Assembly: GCF_024223415.1 (NCBI RefSeq)
Contig: NZ_CP100500.1
Length of the DNA: 64,000 nt
DNA from: Escherichia coli
Lineage (GTDB): Bacteria; Pseudomonadota; Gammaproteobacteria; Enterobacterales; Enterobacteriaceae
Direction: 5' to 3' (one strand)
Below are positions 28,191-49,824 of this stretch, in pieces. Every line of letters begins with the position of its first letter. Position 1 is the first letter of the stretch. Below the pieces are notes generated by a model, which did not search any database, was not told the DNA's origin, and saw only the letters and a list, made by a program, of their open reading frames with translations. The translations under genes and the position numbers were made by a program.

Positions 28191-28296
28191 CAGAAACACA
28201 GAAAAGAAGCGATTTGCCGCAATCTTAAGCAGTTGAATCGCTTTTACTGAAATTAGGTTGACGAGATGTGCAGATTACGGTTTAATGCGCCCCGTT

Positions 28297-28372
28297 GCCC
28301 GGATAGCTCAGTCGGTAGAGCAGGGGATTGAAAATCCCCGTGTCCTTGGTTCGATTCCGAGTCCGGGCACCA
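28297..28372 (+). tRNA. pheU: tRNA-Phe (anticodon GAA), pheU-type
   Basis: 76-nt cloverleaf GCCCGGATAGCTCAGTCGGTAGAGCAGGGGATTGAAAATCCCC...GGTTCGATTCCGAGTCCGGGCACCA with encoded CCA; sits where pheU lies relative to yjdC. Confidence 0.97.
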
Positions 28373-43757: not shown

Positions 43758-43991
43758 AACTCCTCCTGATCAGCCTGAAACTTTTTTAAAGTTTAATCAT
43801 ATTAATACAGTGCAACTATTTGATAGTAAAAACGATGTTCTCTATTTTGTTAATAGATACTTCCTATTGTGTATATATTATGAGATTATTAAGAATAATA
43901 CTCTCTGGGTCGTAGAGACAGGGTATAAGTCACAGGCTGGTGTGGTTCGGATGTTCTTGCCCCCTCAATATCAGACTGCTATTGTATCTTA

Positions 43992-44370
43992 AGTTAACGT
44001 TATCCGCTGACGTCGATATTCCCGTGGTGAGAGATAACCTAACGCACTATGCGGATGGTTTTCATTGTAATGCTCGAACGCCTCTGCAAGGTTATGCAAT
44101 GCCGTTATTACATTCAGTTTCGGCATGAACGCGATGTAGTCTTCATTCACGTTTTCACGAACCTTTCTGCCATTCTATTGCTCTGAGGGCTACTGACTGC
44201 CGTCGTGCAGGGCTCCAGATTCAACTCTCTGGCGAATTGCCGTGTTTCATGAGCCGTATAAGCCGAACCGTTATCCGTCCGCCACTGGATTGCTCGTTCC
44301 GGTCCTTTATCGCCAAAGCGTTTTTCTATCGCTCCTAACATCACATCCTGCACTGTCGGCTTTATCGTAA
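43992..44370 (-). pseudogene. Diverged IS2-group 3' fragment (partial InsD-like orfB plus terminal repeat)
   Basis: About 80% nucleotide similarity to the IS2 3' region at 30120-30520; encodes ...[45 protein letters not shown] similar to InsD. Confidence 0.7.
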
Positions 44371-44655
44371 CCTCCCGTACTGGTCACGGGCAGACTGTTC
44401 ATCATGTTAAACCCAGCCGCTGTCAGATCATGCACCGGCCGGATGGCGGGCTGACCTGCCCCGCCGCGCTGCTGCCCGCCAATCCATTTCTTACCTTCCT
44501 TCCCGGTGGCCTGACGTCCGGCCTCGTCCCCTTTCACCGCATCACCGTCACCGCTGTTCACCACCTTCTTGTACTCTTCCAGCATCGCTGGCCTGCGTCC
44601 ATTTGCTGCGATCAGAAAAGTCCATCATCCGTTTTGCCATGTTCTGGCAGTTCAG

Positions 44656-45117
44656 TTACGCCTTGTCGAAAGCCACATTCGCCTGCAGCACACCGTTGGT
44701 GATCATGTCGTACAGGCCGGGGTTGGCACGCTGTATCACCATCGCCGGCAGACTGGCAGCGGCGCCGGTCGCCCCCTGAATCACATCCCCCATCAGATTT
44801 TTAAAGCCGTCGGTCAATCCGTTAAGATGATTACCCACCGTGGTCTTCAGGTCAAAGTTGCCGCACATCAGATCGCTGCTCCAGCCCAGGTCCATACCCA
44901 GCTTCTGCATGTTGCTGCGCGTGGCCAACTGTGAGATCACCGAGCCGCCACCCAGCGTATAGAACAGTTTGTCGGATACGGCGCCATCCACGGATTTCCC
45001 GTAACCGAACGTGCTGTCATTCAGTTTCGGCAGGGAAAGAAGATCAGCCATCGCCGGAATACTGCAGTACAGCATCACACTCAGTGCCACCATACCTGTT
45101 TTCATCTTCATCATCAT
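44656..45117 (-). pseudogene. Conjugative-element transfer protein fragment (TraH-like?), 3'-truncated
   Basis: 153-aa ORF with signal peptide MMMKMKTGMVALSVMLYCSIPAMA; reading frame breaks downstream and abuts the IS2-like fragment; family assignment tentative. Confidence 0.3.
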
Positions 45118-45123
45118 GGTTCC

Positions 45124-46098
45124 TTAAAAATTCGTACTGCCAAGGAATCGCTGCCCGCGCTTTTCGAAGCAGCTGTAAGGCTGCCACAGTGCAAAGGCTG
45201 CATTACCGTTCTCCGCTGCCTGGTGTTCACCATCCGGGAAAACGGCACAGGAACGCGACACTGACGGCGTCAGTCGCTGCCATTTGTGATTGCGGGTGCC
45301 GGTGTTTTCCTCCACCGCCTCCGGGGGCCACTAGCCGTCACGTTTCACGCCCTTAACCTCCCTGTAGACATGCGACTCCCCCATCCGCGTGATAATGTCG
45401 GCCACCCGCTGAGCCCCCACCGCCGCGGCCCGGTCATCATCGGTCTGCATCACAAAACCACTCCGGTGATAAACGCTCCCCCACATGTTTTTATCGGCCT
45501 AGCTGCCAATCTCGCGTTTGCCGGGAACCTGTGCCTCTGGATACAGGGATTCAGGTAATCCCGTTCGCTAGACGATGCTGTCCAGGGTACTGAGGAAATA
45601 GGCCATGGCCGGTGTCACCGGTGAATCACAGCTGAATCCGGGTACCATCCCGCCGATAAGCTGTGTGGCCGGATGACCCAGCGCATCTGCGTATTTGAAA
45701 CGAATGGCTGAACGGCGCTTCCCCTGTATTTTCATATCCGCCGGATTTCCCCCGCCGGCACTCAGCCCGGACAGGCCGTCAGTGATGGCATTCTCCGGGC
45801 CACCTGCGGTCCGGCTGACCAGCGACATCTCTTTCCAGGGATTACCACCCGGTGCCGTATAGGTGGAAATAACCACTTCCGGGATGAAATGTGTCACCTT
45901 CACGGAAATTCTGACCGTACAGCCAGACGCGCTGCAGTAAAGCCAGTAACAAATCCCGCTGACACGCCAGCTGATATAGTCCGGTGCCGCAGTACTGGCG
46001 ATAATGCTGGCGGTGTTCAGTGATACAGACGCCAGGGGCAGTGATGCCACACTCAGTAACAGCACGCCGGTACGCAGACGACATTTCAGGGACATCAT
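45124..46098 (-). pseudogene. Conjugative-element transfer protein (TraU-like?) split by frameshifts/stops
   Basis: 176-aa N-terminal ORF with signal peptide and Cys-rich segment (ICYWLYCSASGC), continued in other frames to about 45124; total about TraU size. Confidence 0.3.
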
Positions 46099-46211
46099 GG
46101 CTGCACTCCTCCCTCAGCACGGATTTTCCCGGCCATCACCACATCCATGGTGCCGTAAACCACCTCACTGTCATCAAACACCACGGCAGGGTATTTCTTC
46201 ACGCCCAGCGA

Positions 46212-46490
46212 CTAGGCATGTGCCACATCGCGGTAATGACCGGCCAGTTCCGCCTGCATCGTCTGCCATTCGGGAGACTTCATACGTACCCTGACCACCG
46301 ATTCAGCCTCACCCGCATCAGCAGGCAACAGGCCCCAAAAGCGGCTCTGAAGCTGCTCAGGCGCATCCAGCAGAACCACCCTGACACCATCAGGAGGATT
46401 AACGGGAAGATGCTGAGAATCGGTATAAATTGTTGTGCCGGCAGACGCTGCCAGCGGCAGGAAAAACAGGGAACAGAAAATCCGGTACAT
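46212..46490 (-). CDS. Small secreted protein of conjugative-element remnant
   Basis: 92-aa ORF with signal peptide MYRIFCSLFFLPLAASA; upstream of the TraU-like fragment on same strand. Confidence 0.3.
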   Translation of the reverse strand: MYRIFCSLFFLPLAASAGTTIYTDSQHLPVNPPDGVRVVLLDAPEQLQSRFWGLLPADAGEAESVVRVRMKSPEWQTMQAELAGHYRDVAHA

Positions 46491-46686
46491 CGCACGCTGT
46501 CAGTCAGATATTATCTGACTGACAGCGTGCGAAGAAAGCGCTCATTTATCAGCAATAAATTAAAAACGGGATTAAAAAATTACGGTGGGATCCGGGGAAG
46601 TGTATCTGCCAAGCATAACAGACAGTCTGTGATTATACCCGGCCTTTCACAAAGCCGGGGAACTGATTCATACCAAGTGGTGATTT

Positions 46687-46938
46687 TCAACAATAAGTAT
46701 AATGAGGTTGTCCCGGCACCGGTGGCAGTGGTTCGAGATAGACGTCATCAACAAAAACACAGGGGAATTTTTCAACTGCACATCCAGCACGCTCAGACAT
46801 TACCTTCAGACTGATACCATGTTTCTCAGCATCAATAAAGAGGACATCTGCCCCTGTTTCATCCCGGAGATTTGTCGCATGATGCATGATCCGGTGTACT
46901 GAAGGACATGTTTTGTAACCAAAAACACATATACGCAT
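46687..46938 (-). CDS. Small thioredoxin-fold/glutaredoxin-like protein (monothiol CPS motif)
   Basis: ORF trimmed to Met (MRICVFGYKTCPSVHRIMHH...), 83 aa; beta-alpha-beta start with CP motif; weak. Confidence 0.3.
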   Translation of the reverse strand: MRICVFGYKTCPSVHRIMHHATNLRDETGADVLFIDAEKHGISLKVMSERAGCAVEKFPCVFVDDVYLEPLPPVPGQPHYTYC

Positions 46939-47424
46939 GTTGCACCTCCTGATCACTGGTTGACGCCGATAATAAAACAATAATGTGAGCGTAAAAAATG
47001 CACCTCATACCACATTTCTGTAAAAGGCTCTGGCTATCACTGCAAAAAGCAAAATCTTAATTCCAGCATCACTTGTTACTCTCATTCCGTCACTTATATT
47101 TACCCACATGGCGATGTATTTAATTACTGCCCATAAGAATAAAAGCCGCTGGCGGATTATTTCTTTATTACCCGGATGCGGTCACAAGCCCACACATCGT
47201 CAACTACCTGCCGGTAATATTAACTGTCAGAAGAACGCATACATCCGGATGTTTACAGAGTCGCGCGCCTGGTCACAGGTGACAACAGAAGTATGCCATA
47301 CTAAAGGAGTAAACGGCGGGTCACTGGTGATCAAACACCTGCATCGTGTGTTGCTGCCACTGCCCTCAGGTGACAGAGGCAGCATCTTTACGTATTATAA
47401 TGCGTTATATCGGGTTTGTTGTTA

Positions 47425-49512
47425 TCAGAACTGATAGTTCAGCGACATCCAGTAATTTCTCTCAGGTATCACATAACCCGTTGTCGATGCCCCCGTCTGG
47501 AAGTAATCACCCGCATAAAGCGTACCACTGCCGGCACGATACAGACTTACGTCACTGTAATCCTTGTTAAGCACATTATTCACCGCTGCATTCAGCATCA
47601 GTGCATCCGTCACTTTCCACGACATGCCCGCATCCAGTACCGTCCAGGCTTTCAGATATTCACCTTTCTCATCATACACTTTCTTCTGTACAGCTGAGAG
47701 TGACGAATAATTCTGGGTGAAACGTGGCGTTTTCCCGCGGTAACGGGCACCCAGCCATGATGTCACCTCTTCAGTAATCTGCCAGTTCAGTTTCGCATTC
47801 ACCATATGCTCAGGGGTGTAACTCAGTGGTGCACCTTTATTATCCCCATCCCGTTGTTCACTCTGCGTCCAGGTATAATTCAGAGACAGAGTCACATCCT
47901 CTGACAACAGAGGCAGTGTGCCGGCAAATTCCACGCCCTGAGTCCTGGCCTTTCCGCTGTTTGTGTAGCTGCGGGTATTATCATCAATGGAATAAGATAC
48001 GATCTTGTTGGAGAATTCTGTCATAAAGCCCGTGATATTGGCGTTCAGACCGGCATGATTATCGTAATACACGCCCGCTTCATAACTGACACTCTCCTCC
48101 GGCTTCAGGTCCGGGTTACCGAGAAGATTCGTACGCCCCTGACCGGACACACCGCTGATCCCCTTATGTAACTGCCCCATGCTGGGCGCCTTATATCCCG
48201 TGGTCACCCCACCTTTCAGCGTCCACGCATCAGTCACATCCCAGACCATATATGCCCGGGGACTGAAGTGTCCTCCGAACACCTCATAGCGTTCATAGCG
48301 GCTACCCGCAGTCAGTGCAAATGCATCCGTGATATACCACTCATCCTCAACAAATGCCGACCAGCTTTTCTGACGGAAGGTTTCACCAGTACTGGCGAGA
48401 ACAACCCCGTCTTTCATGGAGGAGTTCTGATACTCACCACCGACGGTAACCTTGTGTGATTCCCCCAGAGGTGCAAACAGTAATGAGCTCAGGATAAGAT
48501 TCGACTCCTTAAGCTCCCTCGGCTGGCCGGCAAGCCCCCATTTATCACGCTGCAGTACGCTACGTACAAGCTGACGGCCTTTATTTTCCGTCTCATTCCA
48601 GTTCAGGGATGACTTCCAGGCTCCGAAGGTGAATGTATGATCATAGCCTGCTGAAATTTTATTACGCTCATAGCGCAGGGTGCGATCATAACCGCCCGTC
48701 AGACTGCCCAGCTGGCCATCTCGGTTATCATAACGCTGCCGGGCGATATCCATATCAATCCAGAGTACATCCTTGTCCGTCGCTTTCCAGTCAAGACGAC
48801 CACCTGCATTATAATTCTGTGATTCCGTGGGATAAGGGATACGCGTAGCTGAGGTGTCGCTCAGTGATGTGACCGATGAGCCCTGACGCTGCTGTGTGCT
48901 GCCACGTACCTGAAGGCTGAGTGAATCATCCACAAGGGGACCGCTGCTCCAGAAATTAAACTGGCTGCTGTTCCCCCATTTGTTACTTTCCTGCAGGTTC
49001 AGCCCGGCATTAACCGAAGAGCGCCATTTGTCTGCATTCTTTTTGGTGATGATATTCACCACGCCCCCCATGGCATCAGAGCCGTACAGAGTGGACATGG
49101 GGCCCCTGATAATCTCAATACGTTCGATGGCGGCCAGAGGTGGCATAAAACCCGTATTCATGGCAGCATAACCGTTTGGGGTTACGTCACTGCTCCCGCC
49201 CTGACGGACACCATCGATCAGTATCAGCGTATAACTGGCAGGCATTCCGCGGATGCTGATTTCCAGCCCACCTGTTTTACCCGTACCGCTTTCAACATCC
49301 ACCCCCTCTACGGATCTCAGTGCCTCCCCCAGATCATGATACTGGCTGGATCGCAAATCCTCCTGGCTGATCACTGAAACACTCGCAGCTGCACTGGTTA
49401 ATTTTTTTTCATAGCCAGACGCCGTGACTACCATCACATCTTCCGCAGCCATACTGCTGACTGAAAACCCGAGACAAGGGATGGCTACTGAAGCCAGAGT
49501 GGTTACTCGCAT
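47425..49512 (-). CDS. iha: TonB-dependent outer-membrane siderophore receptor/adhesin, IrgA homologue (Iha-like)
   Basis: 695 aa; signal peptide, TonB box region (DVMVVTAS), plug motif IERIEIIRGPMSTLYGSDAMGGVVNIITKK, C-terminal ...WMSLNYQF; closely resembles recalled IrgA/Iha. Confidence 0.7.
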   Translation of the reverse strand: MRVTTLASVAIPCLGFSVSSMAAEDVMVVTASGYEKKLTSAAASVSVISQEDLRSSQYHDLGEALRSVEGVDVESGTGKTGGLEISIRGMPASYTLILIDGVRQGGSSDVTPNGYAAMNTGFMPPLAAIERIEIIRGPMSTLYGSDAMGGVVNIITKKNADKWRSSVNAGLNLQESNKWGNSSQFNFWSSGPLVDDSLSLQVRGSTQQRQGSSVTSLSDTSATRIPYPTESQNYNAGGRLDWKATDKDVLWIDMDIARQRYDNRDGQLGSLTGGYDRTLRYERNKISAGYDHTFTFGAWKSSLNWNETENKGRQLVRSVLQRDKWGLAGQPRELKESNLILSSLLFAPLGESHKVTVGGEYQNSSMKDGVVLASTGETFRQKSWSAFVEDEWYITDAFALTAGSRYERYEVFGGHFSPRAYMVWDVTDAWTLKGGVTTGYKAPSMGQLHKGISGVSGQGRTNLLGNPDLKPEESVSYEAGVYYDNHAGLNANITGFMTEFSNKIVSYSIDDNTRSYTNSGKARTQGVEFAGTLPLLSEDVTLSLNYTWTQSEQRDGDNKGAPLSYTPEHMVNAKLNWQITEEVTSWLGARYRGKTPRFTQNYSSLSAVQKKVYDEKGEYLKAWTVLDAGMSWKVTDALMLNAAVNNVLNKDYSDVSLYRAGSGTLYAGDYFQTGASTTGYVIPERNYWMSLNYQF

Positions 49513-49561
49513 ATCTTCTCTCCGATTATATTAATCAGAGAGAAGATAAACAAACGCAAGA

Positions 49562-49580
49562 GATAATGAGAATGATTTGC
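49562..49580. promoter_or_regulatory. Fur box upstream of iha-like receptor
   Basis: gataatgagaatgatttgc, 15/19 match to Fur consensus GATAATGATAATCATTATC, about 50 bp upstream of the receptor start. Confidence 0.65.
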
Positions 49581-49824
49581 TTTTGGTTTTTACATAAAAA
49601 AGTAAAAAATTACAAAATATTACATAAGGTTCTACTATACCCCGAATTTCAGTTGAGGACGTTCTTTTCTCTAGGGGAAAGTAACGGATAGCAATCGTTG
49701 ACGATCCATATCGGATTTTTGCACTATGGGTATTTATCCAATCTTTATCAGTTTCTTGTCCTTGGATATGTTAATCATACACTATCGGATATTTCGTACA
49801 TCAGACAGGTGAATATAATTAATA

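Follow-up and report, generated by a model that had tools for sequence, protein, structure and literature searches.

Three co-oriented pseudogenes occupy positions 44375-46490 on the minus strand of the window (the whole 64-kb stretch of E. coli DNA that was analyzed). In 5′ to 3′ order they represent TIGR03757/DUF1525, TIGR03756/TraU-like, and the 5′ half of TIGR03755 (Table 1). An IS fragment adjoins them on the left, and a leader, a spacer, and an intact iha cassette lie to their right. The GC content was 55-57% over the remnant, compared to 36% and 50% in the flanking kilobases. A preliminary description had reported three co-oriented signal-peptide ORFs at this locus, and we recovered them as the minus-strand frames 46212-46490, 45568-46098 and 44656-45117. 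Each has a hydrophobic, signal-peptide-like N-terminus, starting with MYRIFCSLFFLPLAASA, MMSLKCRLRTGVLLLSVASLPLASVS and MMMKMKTGMVALSVMLYCSIPAMA, respectively. The orthologues in ICEclc, orf57827, orf56883 (iceU) and orf55476, are all reported to have SPI signal peptides (Daveri et al. 2023, PMC10018362).

Table 1. Features and lesions at the iha-proximal remnant (window coordinates).
Feature	Position	Strand	Description or basis
IS3-family, IS2-group 3′ fragment (ISEc48-like)	43952..44374	-	~423 bp including right end
TIGR03755 5′ stump	44375..45117	-	~247 of ~472 codons; TIGR03755 matches, alignment to intact MS15052 orthologue
TIGR03755 frameshift	44589	-	+1 A insertion
TIGR03755 nonsense	44656-44658	-	CAA>TAA
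TIGR03756/TraU-like pseudogene	45124..46098	-	Full-length, 324 codons; TIGR03756 and Pfam TraU PF06834
TIGR03756 nonsense	45331-45333	-	TAC>TAG (amber)
TIGR03756 nonsense	45499-45501	-	CAG>TAG (amber)
TIGR03756 nonsense	45568-45570	-	TGG>TAG (amber)
TIGR03757/DUF1525 (thioredoxin-like) pseudogene	46095..46490	-	Full-length, 131 codons; TIGR03757 and DUF1525
TIGR03757 nonsense	46212-46214	-	TGG>TAG (amber)
Perfect palindrome, 21-nt arms	46490..46532	.	Inverted repeat 100% complementary; abuts TIGR03757 start codon
ICE-derived leader upstream of TIGR03757	46491..46571	-	Right-hand end of ICE-gene homology block; blastn 44375-46571
Spacer iha-TIGR03757	46572..47351	-	780 bp; without counterpart in intact ICEs
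iha cassette	47352..49626	-	CDS 47425-49512, 695 aa, intact, promoter and terminator flanks; PGAP

The pseudogenes belong to ICE mating-pair-formation families

Among the ORF pieces of the locus, NCBIfam gave a match to TIGR03757 and split matches, each in two pieces, to TIGR03756 and TIGR03755. Pfam added DUF1525 for the TIGR03757 gene and TraU (PF06834) for the TIGR03756 gene. HMM scoring was performed on read-through translations, in which internal stops were read through and the single frameshift was repaired, and the scores were compared to the NCBIfam curated cut-offs. The TIGR03757 translation scored 115.2 bits (cut-off 73.2); its longest ORF alone scored 62 bits, under the cut-off. TIGR03756 scored 369.5 bits (cut-off 188.35) over profile positions 1-297 of 298, and the frameshift-repaired TIGR03755 stump scored 283.1 bits (cut-off 270.45) over profile positions 1-201 of 419 only. 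Intact orthologues of the three genes scored 126-547 bits. E-values for the three families ranged from 1e-33 to 1e-110, and the family assignments are therefore far beyond chance. These scores bear out the preliminary reading of the locus as a run of ICE mating-pair-formation genes.

The proposal that the second gene is TraU-like also held. Pfam TraU matched the TIGR03756 fragments (E = 3.3e-16 and 2.7e-8), and it matched the intact orthologue over positions 7-305 of 306 (E = 1.4e-54). The third gene had been called TraH-like. Neither the stump nor the intact 472-aa orthologue matched Pfam TraH (PF06122) at E ≤ 1, and a PDB sequence search gave no relative, so this label was dropped and the gene was assigned to TIGR03755.

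The co-oriented order TIGR03757, TIGR03756, TIGR03755 was common to the window, the ICEs of MS15052, E19035 and G8, ICEEc8, and ICEclc. Gene spacing was also as in the intact E. coli ICEs and ICEclc. In ICEclc, the DUF1525 gene (orf57827) is thioredoxin-like and contributes partially to transfer, whereas both the TraU-like iceU (orf56883), whose product is in the cell envelope, and the TIGR03755 gene (orf55476), which has no structural match, are essential for transfer (PMC10018362). There, the three families are ordered as in the window, and a small ORF and TraG_N come next. ICEclc is nevertheless a Pseudomonas element that is distant in sequence, and the slot between its VirB4 and DUF1525 genes holds dsbA-like and radC-like genes, not iha.

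The PGAP annotation of the copy of this island in strain E41 lists TIGR03756 and TIGR03757 as ICE-family pseudogenes with an 'internal stop'. Residues 1-152 of the TIGR03755 stump are called a 'hypothetical protein' (WP_001354606.1, from a 153-aa ORF).

All three genes are inactivated

Lesions and ancestral codons were read from the alignment to the intact orthologues. We observed five in-frame nonsense substitutions, one +1 frameshift, the loss of a ribosome-binding site, and a truncation at 44374/44375, so that the reading of TIGR03755 is cut at 44375 (Table 1). The genes had previously been described as broken by frameshifts. The interruption is real, but its cause is mostly nonsense substitution.

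The lost ribosome-binding site is that of TIGR03757. The corresponding sequence in intact ICEs is only a quasi-palindrome, with imperfect pairing of its arms and GGAGG in the right one (the window was compared with MS15052, E19035, G8 and SMS-3-5). The window differs in that its right arm has become the exact complement of the left arm, and the Shine-Dalgarno sequence is gone.

Outgroup-polarized changes on the window lineage comprised 11 synonymous, 7 nonsynonymous and 4 nonsense substitutions. The nonsynonymous to synonymous ratio was only mildly raised, and these counts, while suggestive of relaxed selection, are too small to decide. The share of nonsense changes was above the 3% neutral expectation (P ~0.004-0.04 depending on the denominator), in a post-hoc comparison of small counts; the apparent excess amounts to five stops where ~1-2 would be expected. 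The excess might reflect selection silencing the leftover envelope proteins.

The left junction joins two truncated elements

ICE homology stopped at 44375, and IS homology began at 44374 and continued down to ~43952. Over 43952-44374, the IS fragment was ~90% identical in nucleotide sequence to ISEc48-family elements (megablast). It matched the NCBIfam model of IS2 TnpB (OrfB) at positions 172-289 of 301 only, in addition to Pfam rve/rve_3, and the ORFs at 43989-44353 matched the C-terminal part of IS2-type OrfB. PGAP describes the fragment as 'integrase core domain, frameshifted, missing N-terminus'. From these matches it appears to be a piece of an IS2-group element, neither IS2 itself nor a complete IS. 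The preliminary description was thus right that an IS fragment marks the cut end of the run, at 44374/44375, but the fragment it called IS2-like is ISEc48-like within the IS2 group. Because the fragment keeps its right end, lacks the 5′ two-thirds, and has a frameshift of its own, the left edge of the ICE remnant is a contact between two truncated elements and not the mark of a simple IS insertion.

The spacer on the right had no homology to the corresponding intergenic region of MS15052 or E19035 and occurred only in the 59 remnant-bearing genomes. It contains an orphan glutaredoxin-like ORF of 83 aa (ATG at 46938, stop at 46687) with a good ribosome-binding site. Homologues of this ORF were found in E. 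coli only, including a 69% paralogue in an unrelated small island, and it had no plasmid match. No link of the spacer to ICEs was found. Since the spacer is without counterpart in any intact ICE examined, the direct ancestor of the remnant is not among the sampled ICEs.

We also searched the 64-kb window for further ICE genes. tblastn with the 771 ORFs of an intact ICE matched the three genes, iha, and a short tRNA-Phe/att segment, and nothing else. A VirB4/TraC ATPase, a coupling protein, a MOBH relaxase and an ICE integrase were all absent from the window by tblastn, and from the PGAP annotation of the identical island. A 14-mer search found no second tRNA-Phe repeat in the window. Because the partner genes are absent, the window can support no transfer.

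Intact relatives carry iha at the same position

The closest sequence relative found was a 78-kb ICE at pheV in strain MS15052 (NZ_CP082097, ~3314514-3392580), with sister copies in GPEC172, GPEC102 and FDN-4. Its identity to the window was 95.1% across 44375-46571 and 93.5% across 47352-49626. Gene order and orientation relative to tRNA-Phe were the same as in the window, and iha occupied the same place beside the run. None of the three genes is disrupted in MS15052, and its 535-bp spacer between iha and TIGR03757 is unrelated to that of the window. This ICE encodes a XerC-type integrase, TraI, a UvrD-like helicase, a type IVB pilus, TraG_N, the TIGR03755/56/57 set, iha, the 128-aa ORF, a VirB4-type ATPase, the TIGR03745-03752 set, and TraD. 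SPI-7-type DnaB, ParAB and STY4528/4534-type proteins represent replication and partition. Its transfer genes have no annotated pseudogene flags, and the element is apparently intact. The FDN-4 sister copy, with an IS21 insertion in its TIGR03755 gene, shows such decay at an early stage.

Sister ICEs without iha were 93.8% (E19035) and 80% (G8) identical to the window. In both, the site between the 128-aa ORF and TIGR03757 is empty. In MS15052, a 77-nt direct repeat lies on each side of the iha cassette, and these repeats are duplicates of the end of the 128-aa ORF.

The same linkage has been published for ICEEc8, described as a complete 86-kb ICE and integrated at pheV in the STEC O117:H7 strain FHI72 (Montero et al. 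2019, PMC6455142). ICEEc8 has a type IV pilus and type-G transfer genes, and its Table S7 lists the 128-aa ORF, Iha (ORF52), TIGR03757 (ORF53) and TIGR03756 (ORF54) in this order (PMC6455142). Its Iha has 696 aa (99% to WP_001223350.1), compared to 695 aa for the Iha of the window. By comparison with ICEEc8, the window has kept only 2.2 kb of dead transfer genes, and its spacer between iha and TIGR03757 is different.

The iha allele of the window is divergent

The iha product is an adhesin and siderophore receptor. The iha of the window was 93.5-93.6% identical to the ICE-borne iha of MS15052 (blastn), an allele found in 20 records, compared to 85.7-85.9% for classical iha, which is found in ~1536 records. 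An identity of 93.6% to the ICE-borne allele as against ~86% to the classical one suggests that the window carries a divergent allele tied to the ICE lineage.

The classical iha loci and the ICE version had in common only the CDS and ~10-100 bp of flank. When we searched for the ICE 5′ flank and the 128-aa ORF, only the ~100-bp promoter was common, so the idea that classical iha loci are decayed ICEs found no support. It is improbable that pheU/pheV ICEs with an iha hotspot in their transfer operon seeded iha into E. coli pathogenicity islands generally, with the stump in the window as a surviving intermediate. The search for ICE scraps at classical iha loci found none, which counts against such a role.

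The remnant is shared among tRNA-Phe islands

From 28249 to 64000, the window was 99.9% identical to the tRNA-Phe island of strain E41, and collinearity with E41 began only at 28249. The island of the window lies at pheU, with a groL-aspA-dcuA-dsbD flank; the E41 and SMS-3-5 islands lie at pheV. The module from 43560 to at least 55695 was 99.8-99.9% identical in SMS-3-5, behind a different tRNA-proximal module. In SMS-3-5, both pseudogenes already carry 'internal stop' flags. The shared module and flags indicate that decay happened once, in an ancestor, and that the dead stump and iha later spread within mosaic tRNA-Phe islands.

Among 5426 complete E. coli genomes, 59 had a copy of the remnant with ≥99% identity. 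Diverged versions were present in ~190 further records (18 at 95-99%, 8 at 90-95%, 14 at 80-90% and 148 at 60-80% identity). Four diverged copies were inspected, and all were in ICE contexts; three were intact and one had an IS21 insertion.

Discussion

Our data indicate, with high confidence, that 44375-46571 is the non-functional remnant of a type-G ICE mating-pair-formation operon, and that the ancestral ICE carried iha and then decayed. The operon belongs to the ICEHin1056/ICEclc/PFGI-1/SPI-7 class, represented in E. coli by the ICEEc2/ICEEc8-like group that integrates at pheU and pheV. ICEEc2, attributed to Roche et al. 2010, is said to be an E. coli ICE of the pKLC102/PAGI-2/SPI-7 family. 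The HMM scores, the synteny, and the 95.1% identical MS15052 ICE with iha adjacent give good support to the original suggestion that part of this island derives from an ICE and has lost the ability to transfer.

In an intact element, the three genes would encode exported envelope proteins of a conjugative type IV secretion system, namely a DUF1525 thioredoxin-like protein, the TraU-like IceU, and the TIGR03755 protein. The ancestral ICE, probably present at full length in this island lineage at one time, would have carried iha as cargo at a variable site flanked by TIGR03757 and the VirB4/TraC ATPase region. A deletion would then have removed all of the element past mid-TIGR03755, up to the junction with an IS2-group element that was itself truncated by then. 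The part upstream of iha would have gone as well, and with it the genes for the ATPase, coupling protein, relaxase, integrase and pilus and those for replication and partition. The three leftover genes would subsequently have gathered the five nonsense mutations, the frameshift, and the loss of the ribosome-binding site, while iha was kept intact, presumably by selection. The dead stump and iha would now be a passive passenger, a module of a mosaic tRNA-Phe island.

A possible but less likely explanation is that this island lineage never had a complete ICE. Recombination or IS-mediated movement would instead have copied iha and its ICE flank from an ICE into a tRNA-Phe island that was already there, with decay before or after this event. 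IS debris on both sides of the block is consistent with such an import, as is the lack of any other ICE scrap or att repeat in the window. The module also lies behind different tRNA-proximal modules in SMS-3-5 and E41, which shows that it moves as a unit. However, with respect to tRNA-Phe it is ordered and oriented like the intact ICE, as expected if a resident ICE decayed in place; otherwise this agreement would occur half of the time. E. coli ICEs of the type attributed to ICEEc2 do integrate at pheU and pheV (PMC13127887; cited in PMC11537424), and tandem arrays of an ICE and a P4-integrase island exist at pheV. We therefore moderately favor in-situ decay over the import of a fragment, as one window hardly separates the two.

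We also weighed a source in a conjugative plasmid with a type-G transfer system, as homologous runs occur on Citrobacter, Pantoea, Klebsiella and Erwinia plasmids. These plasmid matches were only 66-73% identical (best ~71-73%), whereas chromosomal E. coli ICEs at pheV were 94-95% identical and had the iha linkage. Type-G systems, named after ICEHin1056, are moreover nearly confined to ICEs that have MOBH relaxases (PMC3158045). A plasmid origin is thus very unlikely. Continued function of the frames, through read-through of the stops or through domestication as short proteins, for which the 153-aa N-terminal ORF of TIGR03755 would be a candidate, is scarcely credible: the lesion pattern is kept at ≥99% identity in 59 genomes and nonsense mutations outnumber indels, but recent common ancestry explains the high conservation, there are five stops and a frameshift, half of TIGR03755 and the ribosome-binding site of TIGR03757 are gone, and the window has no partner type IV secretion genes.

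Much of this picture is already known, since RefSeq lists two of the three as pseudogenes of ICE families and the layout of an intact counterpart has been published. A small annotation error concerns the TIGR03755 stump, whose entry WP_001354606.1 treats it as a genuine protein. The decay of an iha-carrying ICE is a textbook case of pathogenicity islands arising from ICEs, by ordinary mobile-element decay and with no new mechanism. On this reading, the remnant records how one divergent iha allele entered tRNA-Phe islands, as cargo in the transfer operon of a conjugative element, before that element decayed.

Lesions in the remnant of the type-G ICE

We observed that the remnant of the decayed type-G ICE (window 44375-46490) carries five premature stop codons and only one indel over ~700 codons. 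Among the substitutions, nonsense changes made up a larger share than the ~3% expected under neutrality (P ~0.004-0.04; small counts, post hoc). RefSeq/PGAP presents the TIGR03755 stump as a genuine 152-aa 'hypothetical protein'; the correct annotation would be a fragment of a pseudogene. The IS21-family insertion of E. coli FDN-4 lies in a sister ICE that carries iha, and it is a separate, independent first lesion in TIGR03755, of which the window has a truncated copy.

We also assessed the palindrome at the TIGR03757 start. Its counterpart in three intact ICEs is imperfect and has the sequence GGAGG on its right arm. Changes in the window are clustered, and every one matches the right arm to the complement of the left arm. 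By this pattern they look like a template-switch mutation (quasi-palindrome correction). The changes that perfected the palindrome removed the TIGR03757 ribosome-binding site.

Features of the island and of related ICEs. L002 and L004 are sequences from E. coli MS15052, which has an intact 78-kb ICE at pheV; L013 is from E. coli FDN-4.
Feature	Sequence	Position	Strand	Details
tRNA-Phe island	window	28249-64000		tRNA-Phe at 28297-28372
TIGR03755 N-terminal stump	window	44656-45117	-	WP_001354606.1 (RefSeq/PGAP)
Perfect palindrome	window	46490-46532		21-nt arms; adjoins TIGR03757 start codon
Orphan glutaredoxin-like ORF	window	46687-46938	-	83 aa; CPSV motif; good ribosome-binding site
iha, divergent allele	window	47425-49512	-	
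Palindrome	window	49512-49548		17-nt arms, 94% complementary; over iha ribosome-binding site and start codon
Direct repeats	L002	22488-22564 and 24892-24968		77 nt, 91% identical; bracket iha cassette
'tRNA-Ser' (PGAP)	L004	18583-18660		78 nt; far end of ICE
IS21-family insertion	L013	6461-8768		inside TIGR03755

The iha cassette and the adjoining spacer

The window iha showed ~86% nucleotide identity to the classical O157/CFT073-type iha (~1536 records). Its identity to the allele borne by ICEs (20 records) was 93.6%, and copies at least 99% identical to the window iha were found in 59 genomes only. Immediately upstream of the palindrome at the iha start, at ~49560-49580, lies a putative Fur box, judged by its appearance. 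The ICE-borne copy keeps both the palindrome and the Fur-box-like sequence.

The repeats that flank iha in MS15052 are the duplicated 3' end of a 128-aa ORF, and E19035, a sister ICE without iha, has a single copy of the sequence. Their length exceeds that of a target duplication made by a transposase. The spacer with the glutaredoxin-like ORF was present, among 5426 complete E. coli genomes, in the 59 with the remnant and in no others. Every homologue of this ORF was an E. coli sequence; one paralogue, at 69%, sits next to BON, DoxX and ZnuA genes in a small, unrelated island.

Island site

The 'tRNA-Ser' of MS15052 matches tRNA-Phe in its 3' part, and after it comes a P4-type integrase that shares 94% identity with the one in the window. 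This 'tRNA-Ser' is apparently a hybrid tRNA-like gene, located where ICE and island meet in a tandem array. The island of the window is at pheU (flank groL-aspA-dcuA-dsbD), and E. coli strain E41 has a 99.9%-identical island at pheV. These data indicate that one island occupies either tRNA-Phe site, depending on the strain.
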